The translations under genes were made by a program, and so were the position numbers. Shown here one piece after another: positions 47,994 through 59,633 of a stretch of 64,000 bases of DNA. The notes beneath the pieces were generated by a model. That model ran no database searches, had not been told where the DNA came from, and worked only from the letters and a program-made list of their open reading frames with translations. The DNA is from Sphingomicrobium sp. (lineage in GTDB: Bacteria > Pseudomonadota > Alphaproteobacteria > Sphingomonadales > Sphingomonadaceae): assembly GCA_051953395.1 (NCBI GenBank), contig JBQCIU010000040.1, forward strand, positions 25,880 through 89,879, written 5' to 3'. Numbering within the stretch: the stretch's first letter is position 1; every line of letters begins with the position of its first letter.

Positions 47994-49754
47994 CTACTTG
48001 CCCTTCAACAGTTCGGAAGTCTGCTCCGCGCCTGCGGGTAGCGACTGTTTGTGGTCGAGGAGAGCGTGGAGGAGTGCCGCTATCGTCTCGCGCTTCGCGC
48101 TCTCGTTTCGGAGCGCCTCAACTGCCGCATATGGCTTCTCACGAGTTGCCTCGTAACCGAGGTAAGCCTCCTCAAAGTTGGGAACTGACGCAATCACGCG
48201 GACCAAGTCTGGATTGGGAGAAGCGCTCACCTCATCCCAGATTCTTCCGTTCAGAGTCCATGCCGGGTTTACCTGCGACTTTGTCCCCCCGGTACTCTTG
48301 TCCTTCACTTCGATCGTCTCGGCGTCGCTATCGTGGAGAATGCTGTAGCGCGCCCCGAAATGGTTTAGGATCTTGGCGAGCGAGATCAAAGGCGCCTTTC
48401 CTCTCGCCCGTACGACAACCAGGCTTCTGAGGAGCGGCTCTGGTATCTGATCCTGCCCCTCCTCCTGCAAGAGTGCGGCAGCGACTAGCTTTAAGGCCGA
48501 GTACTCGGTGTCTCCTTCGACGAGCACGACGTGCCCGCCGAAAAAGAACTCGGCCACGTAGGGATCAAAGATATTGAGGAGTTTCAGGTGAACCCGATCA
48601 TCTTCGGAGAGCTTCGCGGTAGCGGGACGAAATAGCGTCGTACCCTCGACAGACCCAGCGTGCCCACGCTCAACCCTCACTATTGTCTCGTTGTTGCGGG
48701 AAAGGTCAATGAAACCCGGATGGTGCGTCGTCACCATCACCTGCCACCCAGCCCTCTCGGCCAAGTCATAGAGAACGTTTGCCGCCTCGTGGACGGCCCT
48801 TGGGTGCAAGCAAAGCTCCGGTTCATCGATGAGCAGTAGATGGGGCCGACCTTCATTCTTGTCGTCGCGCTCCGAAGCAACCTTTAGAGCAGCCCACAGA
48901 ATGCATCGTCGTGCACCACTGCCCTGCAGTTCAAGCGTGCTCTTGTAACCGGCAACGGGTCCGACCCGCATTTGGCTTCCGGAGAACAACGGCACCTTGT
49001 CAAACGGCGCTAGTTCTGGCGCGAACTGGACAACGTGCTCTGCGAAAATACCGGCTAGCAGCTCCGTCAGCTTCTCCTCAATCTCCGCGACATCGGCCTG
49101 TGACTGATGGATTACCTTGTTCTGGAACTCAGCGAGCCGCTGGCTGAGCTGCTCAAACTCTGTCCCCTCGCCGTCTGCAGCCGGGATGTTCTTCGCCCGC
49201 TGGTCAATCAGACTTGTAACGATCTTTGTGATCTCGGCCGCTTGCTTTTCGGGAGGGTCAAACGCCTTGACTGCATGAGGCTGAGGTCGCTGCTTGTTGG
49301 CAACGGCCGCGAACCCCCAAGGCTTTTTCGTGTCCCACTCTCCCTTGTCGTTGTTCCAGCCATGTCGGTCGCCCTTCCCCTCTTTTGAGAACACCCATCT
49401 CTCTCGGACAACCTTCACGCCGTCCATGTTCACCAGCCATTTCTCGGCAGCCGGACCTTGCACTTCGGTTTCCAGCTCAATGGTGGGCAGATTCTCGGGA
49501 TCAATCTTCCCGTTGGGGAAGTCCTCAATCGTGAGCTTTCCCGCGTTTGAACCCTCCGACATCGCCACCTCATACGCACGCAAGATTGAGCTCTTGCCGG
49601 CGTTGTTGGGTCCAACGAGGACGACGATGTTGTCGAGATCGACAACCACAGGCTTTGTGCCAATAGCTCGGAAGTTTGACACCGTGAGCCTCCGGACCTT
49701 GCCGAAGGTGACTAGATCAGCGGGTTCATCCTTGGGTTTTGCGACGGCAGCCAT
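47994..49754 (-). CDS. OLD-family ATP-dependent nuclease (ABC ATPase + TOPRIM)
   Basis: Walker A GPNNAGKS, QGSG signature, LLIDEPE.CLHP, TTHHP, TOPRIM LVEGDTE and DSD. Confidence 0.88.
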   Translation of the reverse strand: MAAVAKPKDEPADLVTFGKVRRLTVSNFRAIGTKPVVVDLDNIVVLVGPNNAGKSSILRAYEVAMSEGSNAGKLTIEDFPNGKIDPENLPTIELETEVQGPAAEKWLVNMDGVKVVRERWVFSKEGKGDRHGWNNDKGEWDTKKPWGFAAVANKQRPQPHAVKAFDPPEKQAAEITKIVTSLIDQRAKNIPAADGEGTEFEQLSQRLAEFQNKVIHQSQADVAEIEEKLTELLAGIFAEHVVQFAPELAPFDKVPLFSGSQMRVGPVAGYKSTLELQGSGARRCILWAALKVASERDDKNEGRPHLLLIDEPELCLHPRAVHEAANVLYDLAERAGWQVMVTTHHPGFIDLSRNNETIVRVERGHAGSVEGTTLFRPATAKLSEDDRVHLKLLNIFDPYVAEFFFGGHVVLVEGDTEYSALKLVAAALLQEEGQDQIPEPLLRSLVVVRARGKAPLISLAKILNHFGARYSILHDSDAETIEVKDKSTGGTKSQVNPAWTLNGRIWDEVSASPNPDLVRVIASVPNFEEAYLGYEATREKPYAAVEALRNESAKRETIAALLHALLDHKQSLPAGAEQTSELLKGK

Positions 49755-50611: not shown

Positions 50612-51217
50612 CTACCTAGGGTCGCGAGCCCACACCTGCCACCAGCGCCGCCTCTTGAGAGCAGGCGCCGGCTTTGGGTGGGCGGAAGACTTTGGCGCAG
50701 GCTGGTCAGCCAAGGCGAACAACGCCGGATCCTTGCCGGCCTTCTGTGCCCTATGTGTGCGAACGAGCGCGCTAAGCGTTCTTTCGACCTCCCATGGAAT
50801 CTCGTCCAGCGCGTCGGCAATCTCGATGGCTGACTTCGGTGTTTTGGTCAGAGCCGCGAAAACCTTTGAATCCAGCTCGGCGTCATACCGCGGCGAGTAG
50901 TCGCCATCATCGTGGATTCCACACCAAAGGATGCAATCCTGCCACAGAACGAAGTGGGCGCCGCATCCCCCATCGCGCCAGACGGATGGATAGAGACTCA
51001 CTTTATTCCGCGCATAGAGCCGCCACGCCTTTCCAGCGCGAGGATCGAGATTGACAGTGAGAACCGAGCCGCATCCATCCGGGCAGACCATTACCAGCGA
51101 CCTCGGCCGGCCGCGGACTACGGTGACGCTATCCCCTGGCTGCTCCAGTAACGGGTTCGCTTCGTGGCGGCTTTCGACTGTCCCTCGAAACCGGATCTTG
51201 CGTGCCGGCAGCTGCAT
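50612..51217 (-). CDS. DUF6527-like protein with a C-terminal wHTH-like extension
   Basis: MVCPDGCG...V.L...W....SLYPSVW...GC.AHF pattern; GAGG RBS before ATG 51217. Confidence 0.75.
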   Translation of the reverse strand: MQLPARKIRFRGTVESRHEANPLLEQPGDSVTVVRGRPRSLVMVCPDGCGSVLTVNLDPRAGKAWRLYARNKVSLYPSVWRDGGCGAHFVLWQDCILWCGIHDDGDYSPRYDAELDSKVFAALTKTPKSAIEIADALDEIPWEVERTLSALVRTHRAQKAGKDPALFALADQPAPKSSAHPKPAPALKRRRWWQVWARDPR

Positions 51218-52751
51218 CTTCTTTCCTCGGATTTCCACAAACTAGCCGATCGGCCACCACTAGAGCATACGCGCGACGCTTAGCGTCGATTGCGCGCAAA
51301 TTTTCACGTACCGCCTGCGGATGCTCCTCGAAGCTTCCGGCCGGATGCATCGAGCGCCGGAGCAAATACATAGCAACCGCCGACTGATAACCCGTTTCGC
51401 AGGTCCGGGCTGCTTGCGCTAGGATTCGGACTTTCCGGATCGCATTGACCCGATGCTTCCAGGGAGCGTCGGCCTCAATGGGGAGTTGCGCGCCGAGGAA
51501 GTTATCCGGCGCGAACAAGCGATCAACGTCTTCGGTCCACTCCTCTTGATCCGCGTCGAGGTCAGAAAGGCGGACGTCCATCGCCAGCGCGACCTCGAGG
51601 CAGGCAGGATCTCCGCTGATTGGCCCCTCACGAGCCGACCCCAGATCGATGAGGATAGCGTCAGCGTTCCGGACGTAGATATTTCCCGGATGAAGGTCGC
51701 CGTGAAATGGCGCCCGGTAGAAGCTTTCCTCGCCGCGCCGGTCGCATAGCTGCTCGTAGATCTGAATCGGAAGCCGACTGAGCCCAAGTTCCTCCGCGCG
51801 CTTCAAATGCTCTTCGCGGACATCCCGATTATCGAAGATGTCCTTGCCAAGCTCGCCCGCCACGGCCCGGCCGGTCACTGGGCCGCGTTGGTCGCTGAAT
51901 GATTGGGCCCACCATCCCCGAAGAGTCATGTCGAACAGGGAGTTTAGTGGCGCGCTGAAATTTCCTTCCTCGACGGCAACCCATAAGGGCTGGGCGAATT
52001 CGACGAAGTTGCCGACGAAGCAGCCCCGCCTCGCGCCTTTGACGGTCCGGTTATGGTCAATGTTCGGCCGAAGGTGGAAGGGCACGTAGAAGTCCGCATA
52101 GTCACGATAATTGCTAAGCTCGCGATCGATCTTCGAGAGCCGTCCGAGCTTCGCGAAAAATGGAAGCGGCTGGACAATCACGCTGTTGCGCCAGAATTGC
52201 GCGTGGACACGGAAGACGTCTGCCGTCTTGCCACCAACCAACGGCTCGAGCCGGATCTTCACCGCGTCGGAGAAAGCGCGCCTCAAGAGCAACTCGTCGG
52301 TTACCGAAATCTCGCAATCCTCCGGCTTTTCGATATCGAGCTCACCAGACCATCCCAGCTGACAATCATGGCGAACGAAAATTTGCGCAAGGACACTGTC
52401 CGGTGAGTTGTTCGCCGTGCCGTTGCGGACGTGTCTGAGGCGGTTCAGCCCCGCATCCTCGATCGCCTCTTGGATATGGATTGAGTCATGATCGTTGGCG
52501 GCGAGCAGGATGACTTCGACTCCATGATTGTCGATCCGCTCGAGATTCGCCTGAAGGTGCATCCGAATGGCCGTGAGTTCCAGCCCATCGGTCGAGTAGA
52601 CGATCCCGCGCACCCCGACCAAATCTGCGTCGGCGAGATCGGCGAGTGGCCGGGGGTCGAGAATGAGGTCGCGGTCGACGAACTCGTCGTTTCCGGAGCG
52701 CCTGGACCGGCCGCCGAACCAGAGAATGCGGTTACGCTTCTCGTGCATCAT
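51129..52751 (-). CDS. Protein-kinase-like phosphotransferase (APH/TCAD9-like) with an uncharacterised N-terminal domain
   Basis: GGKTADVFRV Gly loop, FAK lysine, RE (alphaC Glu), HGDLHPGN catalytic loop, IDLG (DFG-like). ATGA overlap with the E1 stop. Confidence 0.78.
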   Translation of the reverse strand: MMHEKRNRILWFGGRSRRSGNDEFVDRDLILDPRPLADLADADLVGVRGIVYSTDGLELTAIRMHLQANLERIDNHGVEVILLAANDHDSIHIQEAIEDAGLNRLRHVRNGTANNSPDSVLAQIFVRHDCQLGWSGELDIEKPEDCEISVTDELLLRRAFSDAVKIRLEPLVGGKTADVFRVHAQFWRNSVIVQPLPFFAKLGRLSKIDRELSNYRDYADFYVPFHLRPNIDHNRTVKGARRGCFVGNFVEFAQPLWVAVEEGNFSAPLNSLFDMTLRGWWAQSFSDQRGPVTGRAVAGELGKDIFDNRDVREEHLKRAEELGLSRLPIQIYEQLCDRRGEESFYRAPFHGDLHPGNIYVRNADAILIDLGSAREGPISGDPACLEVALAMDVRLSDLDADQEEWTEDVDRLFAPDNFLGAQLPIEADAPWKHRVNAIRKVRILAQAARTCETGYQSAVAMYLLRRSMHPAGSFEEHPQAVRENLRAIDAKRRAYALVVADRLVCGNPRKEDAAAGTQDPVSRDSRKPPRSEPVTGAARG

Positions 52752-54067
52752 GTTGCCGCAATCCTCGTCGGCAGCGGCCATTCATTCGCGCGCGCCAGCC
52801 CGTTGTGAGCGCCGCAGACGTAGCAATCGGAATCGATCGCCCCGGCCACCGGCCTCACCAGCCCCTTGATCCCGTCGTACCGCAGGAAACTCGCCTCGAG
52901 CGGTGCGTCAGTGACCGCCCCTAGGAACATCGAAACCGCGAGCGACGACATGGTCGAATTGAGGGAAATGACAGACGGCTGTGGCTCGTGCGCGCCCTCG
53001 ATGTACGGATCTGCTGCCCGCTGCTCGGGGGTGAGCATCTCGCGGCGGATCGTCTCGCCGTCGAGCAATTCGAGACATGAGAAGCAAGGAAGGCCCGGCG
53101 ACAGGAGCTGCACACGCCCGGTGATTTTGGCCAGCCTGCCTGCCCGGACGCTGAGGCTGACGCCCATATCAATGACCGGGATCAAATACTGATAGGCAAC
53201 TTGGCCGAGCACCGCGCGGCTCGCGTGAGAGTCCGTGCAGCCAAAAATGAGGTCGCGATCCAGTAATTCGCACGCGACCACATCGTCGGCAATGTCTCCG
53301 GCGACTATCCTGACGACCGCGTCCGGATTGATTGTCAGAATCGTTCGCCTGGTAACTTCGATCTTGGGCGTGCCGACGTCGGCGCGCGCGGCACCGACGA
53401 GACGGTTCAGGCTGGTGGCGTCGACGCTGTCAAAATCGATCAGTAGAAAATCGCTTACCCCGAGATGAGCAAGCTGCTGGACCGTGAGCGATCCGGTCCC
53501 GCCCAGTCCGACGATACCGATCTTGAGCGCAGCGATTGCTGCCTGCCCCTCGGCGCCGAAGGCGCGGACCTGCCGGTCGAACCGATCCTCAGGATCGGGC
53601 ACGAAACCATTCTTTATTCCGATCTTCTGTCCAACGGAAATGACAATTGCCTCTTCGGCAGTGTCCAGTTTCCGGGCGGCAACCCCGCCGGGCGATATGA
53701 CGATAGCGCCATGCTCGCGTCCGGGGAAACGCTGGTCGAGAAAAGAGGCAAGGCGCCGTTCACCGGCATCGTCGACCAGCGAGAAGGCCGGGACGCTATC
53801 ATCGAACGGGTGGGTGTGCATGAAGACCAGGGATGAGCCGGTCGCCCGCGCCCGCTTCGCGGCATCAAAAATGAATTCGGGCGTCAGCTGGGCCGACAGG
53901 GGCGAACGGTCGAGATAATCTGCCGGGCCGGGATAACGAATGTCGTGGACGATCAGCCGGCCGTGGCTCGGTCGCGCGAGCCCGATCGCGCAGGATTCAA
54001 CGTCCAGCCTCTCGAGAAGGTTGAACTTGGCCGTCGACCATCGGTCCGCCGTGTGTACGATCCGCAT
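52748..54067 (-). CDS. JAB/MPN peptidase - ThiF/E1 fusion
   Basis: JAB: VESCA (Glu) and HTHP...FS.VD. E1: GLGGTGS, D.D.V...SLNRL, GCTD, PG.PCFSC and CYVC zinc knuckles. Confidence 0.9.
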   Translation of the reverse strand: MRIVHTADRWSTAKFNLLERLDVESCAIGLARPSHGRLIVHDIRYPGPADYLDRSPLSAQLTPEFIFDAAKRARATGSSLVFMHTHPFDDSVPAFSLVDDAGERRLASFLDQRFPGREHGAIVISPGGVAARKLDTAEEAIVISVGQKIGIKNGFVPDPEDRFDRQVRAFGAEGQAAIAALKIGIVGLGGTGSLTVQQLAHLGVSDFLLIDFDSVDATSLNRLVGAARADVGTPKIEVTRRTILTINPDAVVRIVAGDIADDVVACELLDRDLIFGCTDSHASRAVLGQVAYQYLIPVIDMGVSLSVRAGRLAKITGRVQLLSPGLPCFSCLELLDGETIRREMLTPEQRAADPYIEGAHEPQPSVISLNSTMSSLAVSMFLGAVTDAPLEASFLRYDGIKGLVRPVAGAIDSDCYVCGAHNGLARANEWPLPTRIAAT

Positions 54068-54471
54068 CAGCGGACGTCCGCGAGGCGCCCGCGTATCGTC
54101 GCGATCCACGTCTGAAGTCGGTCGCGGCCGGGCTTCCAAGACCGTGCCAGATGATAGGAGAACCAAAGTAGGTCACCGGAACCATCGACGTGCTGGATCC
54201 CGGAGCTCTGCGGCATATTGCCATTCGCCAGACGCATATCGGCGTCGACATAGAAGCAGTCGGGATTGGCGTGCGGATAGGCCGCCGACACGAAGAAGTG
54301 CAGGGTAGCGACGGATTTCGTCCAGCCGGGCGGCACCGGCACGTCAGGCACCGACACCAGCCATTGGTTCGACACCTGCCGCATCGATGCGTTGGGGAAA
54401 CGCTCGCGCACCTCCTCCAGTTCGCGCTCAAGCGGGGTCAAAGGCGCCGGCTCCGCCGCGGTTGCACTCAC
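54067..54471 (-). CDS. Prokaryotic E2-like protein (family E, Ser-His motif)
   Basis: VPVPPGW, AYPHANPDCFYVD, LWFSYH (S..H as in W.WSRH), WKPGRD.L.TW. Coupled to the JAB-E1 gene. Confidence 0.82.
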   Translation of the reverse strand: MSATAAEPAPLTPLERELEEVRERFPNASMRQVSNQWLVSVPDVPVPPGWTKSVATLHFFVSAAYPHANPDCFYVDADMRLANGNMPQSSGIQHVDGSGDLLWFSYHLARSWKPGRDRLQTWIATIRGRLADVR

Positions 54472-54475
54472 TTGC

Positions 54476-54739
54476 CTAGGCTCCGAAGCTGGCGCCCGGA
54501 ACGAGGGTCAGGCGCACCGGCCCCTTGTCCTTGCGCAGATCGACAATGTCGCTGTCGTTCAGCAGAACGTCCGGGTCGTCGCCATGACCGTCAATCGACA
54601 GCTTGTCGTTCGGTTCGGCATTGGGCAGCCGCGCCTTGATGTCCGCGGCGGACATTTCCGGCACGTCGCTCTCATACTTCACGCCATCGACGAAGTAGAA
54701 ATACTTCTCGGGCTTGTTCCCCTTATCGTGGGCTTCCAT
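54476..54739 (-). CDS. Ubiquitin-like (multiubiquitin-domain) protein
   Basis: 87 aa with a beta-grasp-like pattern (YFYFVDG.KYE...SAADI...D.LL...D.VDL), C-terminus PGASFG-A; first gene of the E2/E1 operon. Confidence 0.8.
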   Translation of the reverse strand: MEAHDKGNKPEKYFYFVDGVKYESDVPEMSAADIKARLPNAEPNDKLSIDGHGDDPDVLLNDSDIVDLRKDKGPVRLTLVPGASFGA

Positions 54740-54790
54740 CGCTTTTCCTTCCCGTGCTGACGACGCTCACGCGCCCTTGACCCGCACCCG

Positions 54791-54872
54791 ATTTTGGACG
54801 AATCACTGGATGTCCGTCCGGATTTAGACTATGTAAATGGACTGTATGCGCTGTTCAAGTACGAATTTGGAC
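54791..54872. promoter_or_regulatory. Divergent promoter with repeated GGAC-type half-sites
   Basis: ATTTTGGAC (54791-54799), GTCCGTCC (54812-54819), ATTTAGAC (54822-54829), AAATGGAC (54835-54842), ATTTGGAC (54865-54872). Confidence 0.45.
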
Positions 54873-54893
54873 CATCACATGGAGGAGTGTGAA

Positions 54894-55280
54894 ATGGTCG
54901 AAGCAGCCCCTCGGGACCTGTCGCCGGAGCGCGAGCGGGACCGGATTGCCTTCGCCGCTTTCTTAAAACTAGCCGACCTCTGGAATCTCACCACAGACCA
55001 GCAAATCACCCTTTTGGGATCCCCTGCTCGCTCGACATTCTTCAAATGGAAAAAGGAGGGCGGCCTGCTCCCCTCCGATACCCTTGAAAGGGTCTCTCAC
55101 CTCATCAACATCCACAAGTGCCTCAATATCTTGTTCCCCGATCCGGTCAGGGCGGACGAATGGGTACGGAGGCCTGATAGATATTGGTCCGAGCAGACAG
55201 CGCTCGATCGAATGCTGTCAGGTAAGATGGCGGACATCATCGATGTTCGGCGGTATCTGGACGCGCAACGCGGAGGATAA
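54894..55280 (+). CDS. Xre/MbcA/ParS family antitoxin-like protein (HTH + DUF2384)
   Basis: AF..LADLW.LT..QQ..LLG.P..STFFKWK, ERVS.L..I...L..LF, VRRYLDAQRGG. GGAGG RBS before ATG 54894. Confidence 0.88.
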   Translation: MVEAAPRDLSPERERDRIAFAAFLKLADLWNLTTDQQITLLGSPARSTFFKWKKEGGLLPSDTLERVSHLINIHKCLNILFPDPVRADEWVRRPDRYWSEQTALDRMLSGKMADIIDVRRYLDAQRGG

Positions 55281-55281
55281 G

Positions 55282-55983
55282 TTGTACCAAGTCGTGGAGA
55301 TCGATGAGGTCTGGCTCCGCCTGATCCCGTCCCGGTTCCCGCCGGTAGACATTTACCAGCGGATTGCCGCCCCGGAGAATTGGGATGAGCTGCACGCGAT
55401 TGAGGTCATGACCAATCCTCGGGTTCGTGAACGTCATCGGCTAACGGGACTTAACGGCGTGGACTTGGGCTCAGCTCGCTTCCAGAATTGGAACCACGCC
55501 CCCTTTGCCTACCTCAATCCGGAAGGAAGCTGGCTTCTCGACCCTTTCTTCGGGGTTCTCGAACTGTCGGATTGCCTTCAAACGGCGCTCGCCGCATCCA
55601 TACGAAAGCGTGAGCTGTTCCTTTCCAGGACTAGCGAGCCGCCCCTTGACCTCGACATGCGCGTGTTAGGACATCGCGTCACGGGTAATTTCATCGATCT
55701 AACCGGGATTGACCCGGATCTCACGCAGAGCGAGCGCTGGCAGATCGGCGAAAATGCCTTGCGCTCGGATGCCGATGGCGCGCTTTTCATTTGTCCCTAT
55801 CGTCGCGGGGCTAAATGCATTTCGGTGTTCAAGGGTGACGCGCTCGGCAAGAGCGACCAGCACGACCACTTCCGGTTTGTCTGGGACGGGGTCGCCATCC
55901 GGACCGTCTACTCCTTCAACGACGCCGAAACGCTCGCCGCCAACGAGATCTTTTCGGAGGAGCCGATTTCCCGCGCGGCTTAA
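55282..55983 (+). CDS. RES-domain protein, catalytic motifs apparently degenerate
   Basis: RLIPSRFPP...TNPR...APF...GS...T.EP..LDMRV RES scaffold. TTG start inferred from the GGAGG RBS. Confidence 0.82.
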   Translation: MYQVVEIDEVWLRLIPSRFPPVDIYQRIAAPENWDELHAIEVMTNPRVRERHRLTGLNGVDLGSARFQNWNHAPFAYLNPEGSWLLDPFFGVLELSDCLQTALAASIRKRELFLSRTSEPPLDLDMRVLGHRVTGNFIDLTGIDPDLTQSERWQIGENALRSDADGALFICPYRRGAKCISVFKGDALGKSDQHDHFRFVWDGVAIRTVYSFNDAETLAANEIFSEEPISRAA

Positions 55984-56158
55984 TCTCCCGGCACTGACGG
56001 TGAACAATTTCGATCGTCTGGATTAGGGAGAGTGGTCGTCGGCGCGCGATGACCGCCTCTGGCGCAAAGCTGACGTGCAGCCCCCAGCCGGGCGCGACGC
56101 CCCGAGCAGCGCCACGTCGAAATGACTTGAACTCGCCTACTTAGCGAGCAATCTGTCA

Positions 56159-56310
56159 CCGCCTTCGGTAAAAGCCCGGAGGTGGGGCGTGGAAACCCCA
56201 GCATACCAACTCGGTCAACAGCGAATGCTGAAGGCCGGGTGGCATGCGCGCATGTCCAGGGCCTCGGCCTAAAGGCGCATGCGCCTGTGTGTATGCCAGG
56301 TTTCCAACAT
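56159..56310 (+). ncRNA. C4-like antisense RNA with its downstream complementary target
   Basis: 10-bp hairpin with an AAAA-containing loop (56159-56185), then GGGCGTGGAAACCC. TGGAAACC (56190-56197) and GCATAC (56201-56206) are complementary to GGTTTCCA (56299-56306) and GTATGC (56291-56296). Confidence 0.68.
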
Positions 56311-56396
56311 CCGGCTTCGGCCGTCGCTCCGAGAGGACATAGGTGCGACGAGGAGCTGGTCCAGCTGTTCACGTCGCTCTGGACGGGGCGACGAGG

Positions 56397-57221
56397 ATGC
56401 TGACGTTCAATCAGGCGTTGCTGACGTATGGGCTGGAGCCCAGCGAAGTGCGCCTCCTGCGGCATCAGACGCGCGGGACAAATGGAGCGACGCCATACTC
56501 TCTTTGGCGTGACAGCCGCGACCGGTTCGAGGCGTACCAAGCTGCGCAACGCGTCAGCGACCGCAACCGATTGGATTCCGGCTTCTGGGCGAGCTTCGTC
56601 GCATCGCCCGACGGTCGCACGATGCTCGCGGGAGTTTATGCCGTTCAGGGTCGGGACACGGTGCCGCTGGACTGGCCGTATCCGCTCAGCGAGCGGCCCG
56701 TCGAAGGACAGGATGAACTCTATTGCCTCGACCGTTTGATGCAGTTCGCCGAACTTGAGGGGAGACTGTACGTCGAATGGGGATCGGCCACGCGCGTTTG
56801 GATCCAGCGGGCGGACCGGCAGGACAAGCAGATTACCGAACTCGCACGCGCGGTCGCCGAGCCTCAGTTCCCGGGATTCAGCGCGTTCATTGCGGACCTG
56901 TCGCAGATCGCGGCCTTGCCGGCTGCCTGGCGCGAAGCGCTCGGCGCCGCCCGGGGCATTTACTTACTCGCCTGCCCGCGAACCGGCGAGCTGTACGTCG
57001 GATCGGCCACCGGCGTCGACGGCTTTATCGGCCGCTGGGACCAGTATGCCGCCAACGGCCATGGTGGCAACGTTGGCCTCAAGGGACGCGAGCCCAGCAA
57101 CTTCCAGGTGAGCATCCTGGAAGTTGCCGGGTCGCTTGTCTCGGTCGACGAAATCATTGCTCTGGAAGAGCGGTGGAAAACGAAGCTCCGCTCGCGCCAC
57201 TCGGGGTTGAACCGTAACTGA
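56397..57221 (+). CDS. GIY-YIG nuclease with an N-terminal extension
   Basis: GIYLLAC..TGELYVGSATG...GRW..Y near the C-terminus; about 180-aa uncharacterised N-terminal domain. Confidence 0.85.
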   Translation: MLTFNQALLTYGLEPSEVRLLRHQTRGTNGATPYSLWRDSRDRFEAYQAAQRVSDRNRLDSGFWASFVASPDGRTMLAGVYAVQGRDTVPLDWPYPLSERPVEGQDELYCLDRLMQFAELEGRLYVEWGSATRVWIQRADRQDKQITELARAVAEPQFPGFSAFIADLSQIAALPAAWREALGAARGIYLLACPRTGELYVGSATGVDGFIGRWDQYAANGHGGNVGLKGREPSNFQVSILEVAGSLVSVDEIIALEERWKTKLRSRHSGLNRN

Positions 57222-57654
57222 CCCGCGGTGCGGAGTGCTTCTTGTGGCTCGCCATGAACTCTAACGCTTCGACAAGCCTGCCGGTCAACTCCTTTCGTTT
57301 CGCCAAATCCGCCGCTTCCTGTTCGGGATCGGGCTTCGGCATCATGTTGCGCCGTGCGCCCAGCTCCTTCGCAACGTTGCGCGCCGCCGCCTTATCACCT
57401 GCCAGGGCCATCGCCATCTGCTTCATCCAGAACGCTTCGTCGCTCGCCATCATCACGGTTTCGCCGTCGATCGTCACCCGGGTCTTTCGGGCCCGGGCAG
57501 TCTCAAATGCGTCGATGTGGGGCTCAGCCTTTCTGTTCTTGCCAAGCGGATTGCGGACTTCGCCGGGCTTGATCCTGCCGTTCTCGGGCGGGCGACAATA
57601 GCCGACAGCATAGTCGCCGCTGGGGGAATGCTTCACGTCACGCCGCTTGGCCAT
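57154..57654 (-). CDS. DUF5681 family protein (small-terminase-like island protein)
   Basis: Y.VGY.RPP...R.KPG...NP.G motif. The 3' end overlaps the GIY-YIG gene convergently. Confidence 0.75.
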   Translation of the reverse strand: MAKRRDVKHSPSGDYAVGYCRPPENGRIKPGEVRNPLGKNRKAEPHIDAFETARARKTRVTIDGETVMMASDEAFWMKQMAMALAGDKAAARNVAKELGARRNMMPKPDPEQEAADLAKRKELTGRLVEALEFMASHKKHSAPRVSYGSTPSGASGASFSTALPEQ

Positions 57655-59005
57655 GGGCTTCCTCCTCGGCCCGCGCGGTCGCCATTGCGGCGCGCTCGTC
57701 GAACGTCTCGCCGGTGGAAGCGTGGACTGCATTCTCGCCTGTCCACGCCTGCCACCGCCGAATTGAGAGGTCGACGTAACGCGCGTCGAGTTCGATCGCG
57801 CGTGCCCGGCGGCCCACTCGCTCGCAGGCGATGATCGTGCTGCCGCTCCCAACGAAAGGGTCGATCACCAGATCGCCCCGCCGGGTGGTGTCCAGCAGCG
57901 CATCCGCGATCATCCGCACCGGCTTGGGCGTGGGGTGCTCGGCGAGAATATTGCCTTCCTCGCTACCCTTGGCGCTGGTCACAGCAGCGGGATAGGTCCA
58001 GATGTTGCTGCGGTTGCGCCCGAAGCGGCCGAGCTGGACATTATTTCTCATCCGTCCGCGCGTCTTGAAGATCAGGATCAGCTCATGCTGCGAACGCAGG
58101 AATGAACCTTGTCCCGCGCGGTCCTTTGACCAAACGGCGAGGTTCACCAGCGGCCCGAGGATCGGGCGCGTCGCGTCCATGAGCAGATGCAGACTGCGCC
58201 AGTCGATTGCTTCGTAAACCACTGCCCCGGGCGCGAGATGCGGGATGAGGTTGCGGTTGAATCCCGTGAAGAGTTCGCTGAGCTCCGCCTCGCTCATCTC
58301 CCCCGAGGCCATCACGAACTCCCGGTGGCGGCCCTTGCCGGCAACGAACCCGTCGATCCGGCAGCCATAGGGAGGATCGGTGAACACTGCATGAGCCTTC
58401 GCCCCGTCCAGCAGCTGGTCGTAAACCCTGGGATCCAGGGCATTGCCATGAACCAGTCGATGCTGCCCAAGCGTCCACAGATCACCGGCCTCCGAAACCG
58501 GCACCGCGTCCAACCGGGGCACCTCATCCTCCTCTTCCGATTCCGGCTCTCCGATCATCAGGTCGATCTCTGCAACTTCGAAACCGAGATCGGTGGCCTC
58601 CAGGTCGAGCGTGGCTTCAAACTGCAGGATGTACTCGCCGATCTTGGCCCGGTCGCTGAGACCAAGGTCGCCGAGCTTCTGGTAAGCGATCGACAGCGCC
58701 TTGGCCTCGAGGGGACTGATTGCCTTCAGTCTTATGACTGGAACGGTCTCGATGCCGGCTTCCTGGGCAGCGATCAGCAGGACCTCGCCGATTACCACTT
58801 CGCTGTCGTCGGTGATGACGAGTGGCTGTTCGATCTTGAAGCGCCTGGCAATTGCTCGTGCCTTGCGCCGGTCGGCCGCCGAGAACACGCGGCAGCTGTC
58901 ACTCACCGTGAGTGCAGAGACGGGAACGATTTCGACTGCGAACGGCTGGTTCGAACCGCGCGCAGGCGCAGGCGATTCAGCGTCGATGGTGTCGATACGA
59001 GACAT
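57638..59005 (-). CDS. ParB-like N-terminal domain + N6/N4 DNA methyltransferase
   Basis: VFTDPPYG (motif IV) precedes HPT.KP and DPFVGSGST (motif I), i.e. beta-class order; the N-terminal region is ParB/Srx-like. Confidence 0.88.
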   Translation of the reverse strand: MSRIDTIDAESPAPARGSNQPFAVEIVPVSALTVSDSCRVFSAADRRKARAIARRFKIEQPLVITDDSEVVIGEVLLIAAQEAGIETVPVIRLKAISPLEAKALSIAYQKLGDLGLSDRAKIGEYILQFEATLDLEATDLGFEVAEIDLMIGEPESEEEDEVPRLDAVPVSEAGDLWTLGQHRLVHGNALDPRVYDQLLDGAKAHAVFTDPPYGCRIDGFVAGKGRHREFVMASGEMSEAELSELFTGFNRNLIPHLAPGAVVYEAIDWRSLHLLMDATRPILGPLVNLAVWSKDRAGQGSFLRSQHELILIFKTRGRMRNNVQLGRFGRNRSNIWTYPAAVTSAKGSEEGNILAEHPTPKPVRMIADALLDTTRRGDLVIDPFVGSGSTIIACERVGRRARAIELDARYVDLSIRRWQAWTGENAVHASTGETFDERAAMATARAEEEAHGQAA

Positions 59006-59543
59006 GATTATCCTCCTTTCGGTTGACTGATTTGAGGAGAATAAATCGGCAATTCTTAACGCGATTCGCGGGCCCGAGGAGCACTCATTAGGGAGGTCGC
59101 AATGAGGCAACCTGGCGCGGTTCGTCGAAGTGCTCATTATCGGTTGGAGCGAGATCATCCGGACAGCGATGTGACGGTTTCGAGCCTTGCGTCAGGCGCG
59201 CTGCGGACCCGTTATCGGGGAACAAATTTCCCATGTTACTCCCTTCCACCTGCGTGTTTCGGGGATTCGTGTCCCGTCAGATTGCTCGGAAATCGGGGAA
59301 TGCTGAGAACCGGCGTGGAGCGGAATTTTTGTAAAGTCCCATCCGAATTCCCATCCGGATGGGAAAGTGGCGCCTTAAAATCGAAACCGTACTGCCGGAA
59401 CGCGCGGCGGAGAATTGGCCTCGGAAAATCGCCAACTGCCCAGCCACATTGCTCTCTGCGGTACCGATTGACGCACAAAGTCGCGCGGAAACGCGCGATT
59501 TCGCAAGCGGATGGGAATGTCGGACGCGGGAGAGCAGACTGAG

Positions 59544-59633
<90 letters not shown>

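Follow-up and report, generated by a model that had tools for sequence, protein, structure and literature searches.

A candidate portable transcription switch derived from a NatR/NatT-type toxin–antitoxin pair: an Xre protein and a pseudo-enzyme RES facing a bacterial ubiquitination-like operon

Background

Among type II toxin–antitoxin (TA) modules of the RES-Xre kind, the one closest to the locus described here, by RES structure and by Xre sequence, is NatR-NatT of Pseudomonas aeruginosa (PA1029/PA1030), whose RES protein bears a flap. NatR and NatT form a 4:2 hexamer that binds its own promoter, and a dead NatT (E29D R82A) keeps that promoter fully repressed (PMC11535050). The Xre of Pseudomonas putida represses only as a 4:2 Xre-RES complex, Xre alone being monomeric and inactive (PMC12204516), and two Xre dimers of this complex (PDB 6GW6, 9R35) can contact two promoter sites. 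In this work, we analyzed an xre-RES pair found in 64,000 nt of Sphingomicrobium sp. (assembly GCA_051953395.1, contig JBQCIU010000040.1, positions 25,880 to 89,879 of the forward strand), a stretch hereafter called the window, where the pair is divergent from an operon that begins with a gene for a ubiquitin-like protein (Ubl).

The pair has in common with NatRT the N-terminal flap of RES, the C-terminal helix motif of Xre and the xre-then-RES gene order. NatT, which has R82, Y93, E104, S184 and N193, is a phosphorylase of nicotinamide adenine dinucleotide (NAD+) and NADP+, whereas the RES of the window has W, E and A for R82, Y93 and E104. NatRT, to which the sequence identity is only about 12 %, is moreover a stand-alone core-genome locus, while pairs of the window type lie in nearly all loci divergent from another operon, hereafter the cargo. 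As for P. putida, with its two Xre dimers, the window has two palindromes that lie on the same DNA face; however, the P. putida RES lacks a flap and is active as an NADase, and its two sites, spaced about 20 bp, serve to regulate the TA operon alone, whereas the sites of the window type are 43-46 bp apart and cover a second, divergent promoter as well, according to our predictions.

Bacteria have to keep dangerous immune operons silent and to turn them on, and three families of regulators are known for this task. For the window pair and its relatives, we computed domain identity, fold, catalytic loss throughout the clade, purifying selection, synteny with many cargos and operator conservation. 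We consider it likely that the pair is a domesticated NatR/NatT-type TA module, i.e. a portable two-protein transcription switch for a divergent immune or stress operon.

Results

A pair coupled to at least eight kinds of cargo operon

The clade comprised 88 loci; 80 of them, nearly all from Alphaproteobacteria, were obtained from a scan of one genome per species. Xre is encoded directly upstream of RES in 87 of the 88 (79 of the 80 species-scan loci), and nearly every locus has a divergent cargo operon. Cargo was typed by tblastn with cluster representatives and by Pfam, which distinguished at least eight architectures. Bacterial ubiquitination-like (Bub) operons account for 11 loci with type I Bub including TCAD9, 6 with other type I Bub and 22 with type II Bub (Multi_ubiq, DUF6791-ThiF, DUF6527). 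Three further E1/Ubl types consist of Multi_ubiq, Metal_CEHH, Prok-JAB and E1-N/ThiF (11 loci), of Ubl, DUF7665, a 174-amino acid (aa) protein and ThiF (11 loci), and of Multi_ubiq, a 109-aa protein, a 172-aa protein and ThiF (12 loci); they are operons of E1, JAB and Ubl genes resembling the bacterial ISG15-like (Bil) systems. The remainder included SMODS/CD-NTase operons, i.e. similar to type I cyclic oligonucleotide-based antiphage signaling systems (CBASS), with SLATT/Tle1-like or HNH-SAVED effectors (5 loci), Nmad2/dCTP-deaminase (DCD) operons (2 loci), and a few loci whose cargo stayed unresolved.

Computation strongly supports the view of the pair as a putative regulator of the adjoining operon rather than a stand-alone TA module, because it is divergently coupled to these cargo types with one and the same layout of operators and predicted promoters.

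Closer to the window, RES homologues that are 57-88 % identical (on metagenome contigs and a Mesorhizobium plasmid) share the block Ubl-E2-E1-TCAD9(-BubE) facing Xre-RES; the six-gene block is common to the close orthologues and their outer flanks differ. Further away, the pair of Sphingomonas sp. J315, with a 50 %-identical RES, faces Nmad2, HMUDK_hel, DCD, MazG_C and UDG.

The idea that every cargo has an E1 (type II CBASS with Cap2 included) was rejected, SMODS and Nmad2/DCD loci being devoid of it. The cassette faces an Nmad2 and dCTP-deaminase-like operon in two unrelated genomes (L008, 4444-7451; L040, 6558-9252), and the L008 operon also has HMUDK_hel, MazG_C and UDG; such a gene set for nucleotide modification or depletion may be an uncharacterized defence system.

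As a contrast set we used 40 metagenome loci of catalytically intact relatives, found with an 8-sequence alignment (A5). An Xre partner is present in these loci and the neighbours are varied and partly housekeeping; a Ubl, E1 or SMODS neighbour was found in none of the 40.

Two operators over a bidirectional control region

All coordinates of the locus are collected in Table 1. The spacer between the Ubl operon and xre holds two 16-bp palindromes related to AGTCC-N6-GGACT, O_A and O_B, which are 43 bp apart in the window (about 4 helical turns). When 80 non-redundant spacers were compared with 1459 background segments, at least two such sites (at most 2 mismatches) were found in 68 of the spacers and in none of the background segments, of which only 5 % contain one. 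In most of the 80 loci, O_A lies at about -79 and O_B at about -35 relative to the Xre ATG. The distance between the two, most often 44-45 bp, stays within 43-46 bp in all 80. Three hexamers, TGGACT, GGACTA and TCAAGT, each occur in 75-79 % of the spacers against 2-3 % of the background (79 % against 2.4 % for TGGACT, 76 % against 3 % for TCAAGT). This operator layout is identical across cargo types.

Half-sites flank the palindromes. The position of TTTGGAC, about 19 bp left of O_A, is conserved, and many loci have a third, weaker palindrome 15-17 bp from O_A, at the half-site located between O_A and O_B. The pattern WWTRGAC, which was defined after the fact, has 19 matches on both strands of the 64-kb window, four of which lie in the spacer, all on the + strand (54793, 54823, 54836 and 54866); outside the spacer its frequency is about 1.2e-4 per position and strand, so that about 0.04 would be expected in 154 bp. 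The GGAC cores of these matches are invariant in six orthologous spacers, and two inverted GTCC copies stand at 54813-54820.

An earlier note on this DNA had pointed to the 154-bp gap between the Ubl and Xre starts, to four (T/A)(T/A)T(G/A)GAC half-sites with inverted GTCC copies, and to a TA module possibly repurposed as a regulator of its neighbour. The gap (from the Ubl start at 54739 on the - strand to the Xre ATG at 54894) and the motifs are present as described, and the repurposing would agree with an operator layout that stays the same over eight or more cargo types.

Conservation across loci also outlines two predicted promoters. For the rightward one (P_xre), TTGAC of the -35 element is invariant in six orthologues, 42 of 66 loci have TTGA[CT] at 36-38 bp to the left of O_A, and tAa.at is the -10 consensus. 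For the leftward one, TCAAGT is invariant in six orthologues, and the consensus reads TCAAGTCC with an at.T.ta element. Over the 66 loci, the left part of the consensus runs cTTGac, about 12 nt, tGGACtAa.at, about 8 nt, AGTCCcgATntGGACT and at.T.ta; it continues to the right with gGACT, about 12 nt, TCAAGTCCaAaTttGGACta, the ribosome-binding site and the ATG. The conserved palindromes overlap the -35, the -10 and the start site predicted for the cargo promoter.

Two AGTCC-N6-GGACT-like sites were also seen upstream of three intact RES relatives (L090, L113 and L118), out of 40 with usable upstream sequence; their Xre proteins are 44-48 % identical to that of the window. Since these relatives have two such sites, operator specificity may predate the loss of catalysis.

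A conserved Xre protein

The Xre of the window scores above the Pfam curated cut-offs for Xre-like-HTH (PF20432, 44.5 bits) and Xre_MbcA_ParS_C (PF09722, 40 bits), and the closest PDB sequence is NatR (8qnl_A, E 1.6e-3). RSTfFkWkK, the recognition helix, and YLDAQRGG, the RES-binding motif at the C-terminus, are near-invariant among 72 distinct orthologues, which agrees with a single conserved operator and a single conserved partner. The proportion of nonsynonymous differences (pN) is 0.035 for xre between the window and locus L002, against a synonymous proportion (pS) of 0.66. We found no homology of the pair to CapW, CapH/CapP or CapK/CapS, Pfam giving only Xre-like-HTH, Xre_MbcA_ParS_C and RES, and no PADLOC model matched Xre or RES.

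A RES protein without the NAD-cleaving residues

The RES protein matches PF08808 over residues 68-202 (37.3 bits, cut-off 23.2). In searches of PDB sequences, neither RES by itself nor profile A1, built from its close relatives, matched a RES structure, and the link to NatT was found only with a broader profile (A3) and by fold search. A larger flap-bearing RES family was recovered by searching 1.8 billion cluster representatives; the 71-sequence family alignment A3 aligns to NatT at E 4e-9. An AlphaFold2 model built on 32 homologues (predicted local distance difference test score 81, low in the flap region) has NatT as its top Foldseek matches (8qnq_C and 8qnl_C, E 1e-8, template modelling score about 0.6), followed by the P. 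putida RES, ParT and VPA0770 (probability 0.90-0.99).

NatT active-site residues were taken from PMC11535050 and mapped through the A3 profile, with a numbering offset of 13 fixed by the E29D variant chain. R82 corresponds to W84 of the window, Y93 to E94 and E104 to A105; S184 corresponds to C171 or P172, with a one-residue ambiguity, and N193 to C179, which is not diagnostic because intact relatives also have Cys there. The window RES therefore lacks the R-E-S catalytic signature of NatT (R82, Y93, E104, S184). All four residues are invariant in the 27 members of the sister group, and the wider family has the consensus GSRFSDG..GVYYAA..TAIAE..YH...Y.SVR. The earlier note had read GSWL, TALAAS and FICPYR in this protein, set them against SRF, TAxxET and YxSxR of active RES toxins, inferred that the enzyme was dead, and suggested alignment to the RES hidden Markov model and to toxin structures. 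The three motifs are found at residues 82-85, 101-106 and 169-174, the intact sister group reads GSRF, TAIAE and YxSVR, which bears out the consensus given for active toxins, and the mapping onto NatT reported above points to the same probable loss of catalysis.

This loss extends to all 88 loci. Position 105 is never acidic, i.e. the catalytic Glu is lost in the whole clade, position 94 is Glu throughout apart from Asp in two loci, and position 84 varies (R, W, Y, H, T, F or A). Other positions are strictly conserved and specific to the clade, namely QNWNHAPF.Y (68-77), LEL, LQTALA and DMRVL. In the unbiased set A1, Q68, N69, W70 and N71 are invariant and H72 is present in at least 90 % of sequences. 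The segment taken by QNWNH provides, in NatT, residues Y66, T70 and Y74 of a phosphate pocket located where the flap meets NatR; this hints at a remodelled ligand site.

Computation strongly supports RES being a putative pseudo-enzyme whose NAD-cleaving residues are gone, and this loss would argue against a growth-arresting toxin. RES has a pN of 0.07-0.30 with pS saturated at about 0.7, i.e. a nonsynonymous to synonymous rate ratio well below 1. Such strong purifying selection implies that the gene is kept for something other than NAD cleavage.

The locus in the window

Table 1 Coordinates in the window of the xre-RES pair, its control region, the cargo operon and neighbouring genes
Feature	Position	Strand	Remarks
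OLD-family AAA ATPase with TOPRIM	47994..49754	-	AAA_15, AAA_21, OLD-like_TOPRIM
BubE (DUF6527)	50612..51238	-	last cargo gene; PF20137, 51 bits
TCAD9/APH kinase-fold protein	51129..52781	-	PF19974, 42.4 bits, and PF01636
JAB peptidase-E1 fusion, BubCD-like	52748..54067	-	ThiF PF00899, 126 bits
E2-like protein (Prok-E2_E)	54067..54471	-	PF14462, 46.4 bits
Small ubiquitin-like protein, BubA-like, 87 aa	54476..54739	-	first cargo gene; supported by synteny
Shared bidirectional control region	54740..54893		154 bp, between Ubl operon and xre-RES
Predicted P_xre	54777..54805	+	-35 TTGACC 54777-54782, 17-nt spacer, weak -10 GAATCA 54800-54805
Half-site TTTGGAC	54793..54799	+	beside -10 of predicted rightward promoter; clade consensus tGGACtA
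Operator O_A CGTCCGGATTTAGACT	54815..54830		AGTCC-N6-GGACT with 2 mismatches; over predicted leftward start site
Predicted Ubl-operon promoter	54830..54858	-	-35 TTGAAC 54858-54853, 17-nt spacer, -10 TACATA 54835-54830
Half-site AATGGACT	54836..54843	+	between O_A and O_B, within spacer of predicted leftward promoter
Operator O_B AGTACGAATTTGGACC	54858..54873		2 mismatches; left half overlaps predicted leftward -35
xre	54894..55280	+	128 aa; Xre/MbcA/ParS-type helix-turn-helix (HTH) protein; N-terminal Xre-like HTH and C-terminal toxin-binding domain
Pseudo-RES gene	55282..55983	+	233 aa; ADP-ribosyltransferase/RES fold, NatT-like N-terminal flap, catalytic residues replaced
GIY-YIG protein	56343..57221	+	PADLOC UzuA match, E 4e-77
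DUF5681 protein	57154..57852		
N6_N4 DNA methylase	57638..59158	-	506 aa, long N-terminal extension
tRNA-Ser	59544..59633	-	anticodon TGA

The window has the gene order of type II RES-Xre TA modules, xre being directly upstream of the RES gene. The ATG at 54894 is the most likely xre start: a ribosome-binding site (GGAGGAG, 54881-54887) precedes it, and the 128-aa gene calls of orthologues begin at the equivalent codon. The start codon of RES is a TTG that follows GGAGGA and is located 1 nt past the xre stop (55278-55280). Longer open reading frames (54837-55280 for Xre, 55084-55983 for RES) were rejected on the basis of ribosome-binding-site positions, operator overlap and the gene calls of orthologues.

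Divergent from the pair, the cargo operon consists of five genes on the - strand (50612-54739). It combines BubE, a peptidase-E1 fusion, an E2 and a Ubl in one operon, as in the definition of type I Bub operons (formerly 6E.1; 10.1101/2024.11.21.623953), and departs from that definition in that Ubl and E2 are unfused and one gene, encoding TCAD9, is added. BubE was described as a serine peptidase (10.1101/2024.11.21.623953), and newer Pfam releases give the name BubE to the DUF6527 family. In the JAB-E1 fusion, the JAMM motif HTHP...S..D was read directly in the N-terminal part; its likely start is the ATG overlapping the E2 stop, orthologues being called at 439-450 aa. The window copy of the Ubl has no Pfam match, and its orthologues in L006 and L007 match Multi_ubiq weakly. 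Its C-terminus is ...GASFGA; because a terminal Gly-Gly is absent, the fused JAB domain may have to trim this end ahead of adenylation. The TCAD9/APH kinase-fold gene, located between E1 and BubE and outside the published Bub gene set, is kept in all close relatives (L001-L010, 30-68 % identity).

The surroundings of the pair and its cargo, at 48-59.5 kb, look like a defence island. The GIY-YIG protein, encoded 360 bp downstream of RES, matches UzuA of the Uzume defence system, and its adjacency to the Xre/RES pair is not conserved in other loci. The OLD-family ATPase gene lies just beyond BubE. At the island border stands tRNA-Ser, tRNA genes being typical integration sites, with the methylase gene and the DUF5681 gene next to it.

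Discussion

A proposed mechanism

What follows is inferred as regards the 4:2 stoichiometry, the choice of repression over activation, the positions of the promoters, and the existence and nature of a signal. A RES dimer would hold two Xre dimers, as in NatRT and in the P. putida Xre-RES complex, and it is on these two precedents that we propose the dead RES as a scaffold placing the Xre dimers on O_A and O_B. The two HTH dimers would occupy these operators with the aid of the flanking GGACT half-sites, and would cover the leftward Ubl promoter from its -35 through spacer and -10 to the start, together with the -10 and the early transcribed region of the rightward xre promoter. Because O_A and O_B lie over both predicted promoters, the complex would repress both the cargo and itself; the direction, i.e. 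repression, is suggested only by the position of the operators over predicted -35, -10 and start sites. RES would not be a toxin, since the NAD-cleaving residues are gone. It would be kept as the scaffold that Xre needs for DNA binding and probably also as the receiver of the inducing signal. By acting on the flap or pocket of RES or on the RES dimer, this signal would weaken the flap/Xre contact or the dimer itself, and the complex would no longer bind DNA. NAD or ADP-ribose, which the earlier note put forward together with a phage signal, may plausibly be the ligand.

A fuller version of this proposal would have the pair as a fourth regulator family beside CapW/BrxR, CapH+CapP and CapK+CapS, in which the pseudo-enzyme RES senses a small molecule (NAD+, ADP-ribose-type metabolites or phosphate) through the flap and the pocket carrying QNWNH, the 4:2 repressor dissolves, and Bub, Bil or CBASS operons are turned on. 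We hold this version to be doubtful; were it true, Ubl defence would be tied to the NAD or nucleotide state of the cell and not to single-stranded DNA (ssDNA).

Weighing the interpretations

Several observations count against reading the pair as a transcription switch. A generic promoter and terminator scan of 54400-56400 called no sigma-70 promoter in the spacer, so that both promoters were placed from cross-locus conservation only, and GAATCA, the predicted xre -10 of the window, is poor. The sequence was found in no RNA run, its matches being only in soil and rhizosphere DNA metagenomes. On the protein side, the alignment at Ser184/Arg186 has a one-residue ambiguity. Arg at position 84 is retained in about 40 % of the clade, and these members may still bind NAD or another ligand to some extent, or follow an unusual chemistry. 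In the 80 genome loci, the invariance of the clade motifs QNWNHAPF and HF[RK]FxWDG is partly by construction because these motifs served to retrieve the loci. Finally, E1/Ubl systems make up about 84 % of the cargo operons, and the role of the pair may be more specific to the Ubl pathway.

This last bias is what one would expect if the pseudo-RES were itself a component of Ubl conjugation, i.e. a substrate, target mimic, adaptor or sensor feeding E1/E2, with Xre only regulating its own genes; in most loci the first cargo gene indeed encodes a Multi_ubiq protein or a small Ubl. However, the same pair and operators face SMODS+SLATT+Tle1-like, CD-NTase+HNH-SAVED and Nmad2/dCTP-deaminase operons, which are devoid of E1, E2 and Ubl, and CapK+CapS, an established regulator, is similarly biased to Bub operons (PMC13373217). 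We consequently give a role in conjugation little credit. Even less probable to us is a working type II TA module, acting in addiction or abortive infection, in which RES would kill or arrest cells through a non-canonical site or non-catalytically, and the linkage to defence genes would reflect island stabilization. The full RES fold with its flap, the intact toxin-binding domain of Xre, translational coupling and the conservation of R18 (Lys in one sub-clade) and, in most members, of R174, together with the partial retention of Arg84, would all suit such a module, and GndRX is an example of a NatT-like pair with a non-canonical phenotype (PMC12457610). Yet no clade member retains the catalytic Tyr or the catalytic Glu, the catalytic Arg is unconstrained, addiction needs neither a fixed divergent orientation nor operators over the cargo promoter across eight types, and the intact relatives lack such a linkage.

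Regulation could also be due to Xre alone, RES being a passenger that stabilizes or titrates Xre without sensing, and induction occurring elsewhere, e.g. by Xre proteolysis. Antitoxins commonly act as transcription factors (PMC8987985), and ligand sensing by RES has no direct support. Against a passenger speak the strong purifying selection on RES, the invariant polar residues Q68, N69, W70 and N71 (with H72 nearly so) at the position of the NatT phosphate pocket at the flap/NatR interface, and the P. putida Xre, which is monomeric and does not repress in the absence of RES; this explanation seems to us very unlikely. The two-protein switch is thus the reading that we retain as likely.

If this switch is real, the cassette would account for the control of further operons of the Bub, Bil-like and CBASS kinds, most of them in Alphaproteobacteria. 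The pair would then also stand as a clear example of TA domestication as a unit, its toxin being retained as a pseudo-enzyme, whereas in the usual picture the antitoxin leaves its toxin and becomes a transcription factor. A conserved 16-bp operator and a small module make the proposal directly testable. The cassette is potentially a marker for new defence operons through what lies divergent from it, and the inducing signal, once identified, could help reveal the biological role of Bub operons.

Comparison with known regulators

That antitoxins become transcription factors is a known idea (PMC8987985). No published description of an Xre/pseudo-RES regulator was found in full-text searches, which left most subscription journals outside, and the Bub papers do not mention Xre or RES among regulators. 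The nearest case of domestication is GndRX of Legionella pneumophila, a NatT-like flap-bearing RES-Xre pair that is non-canonical, non-toxic and proposed to be domesticated (PMC12457610); GndR, in contrast to the RES of the window, still has the R-E-S residues, on which its phenotype depends, and there is no report of immune operons beside GndRX.

In terms of genomic setting, the resemblance is to CapW/BrxR, CapH+CapP and CapK+CapS, portable regulators at promoters of Bub, Bil, CBASS, bacteriophage exclusion (BREX) and similar operons. CapW or CapH+CapP accompany 219 and CapK+CapS 59 of the catalogued Bub operons, i.e. 278 of 544 (PMC13373217). Like regulators of the Cap kind, the Xre/pseudo-RES pair has its genes beside the promoters of numerous unrelated immune operons, and, as with CapH+CapP and CapK+CapS, it consists of two proteins, a DNA-binding repressor and a sensor partner, both the repression by Xre and the sensing by RES being our proposal. 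It differs from them in having no WYL domain, no CapP metallopeptidase and no STAS or GHKL domains. The proposed sensor partner is here a dead toxin of the ADP-ribosyltransferase fold, whereas the three known regulators respond to ssDNA or DNA damage.

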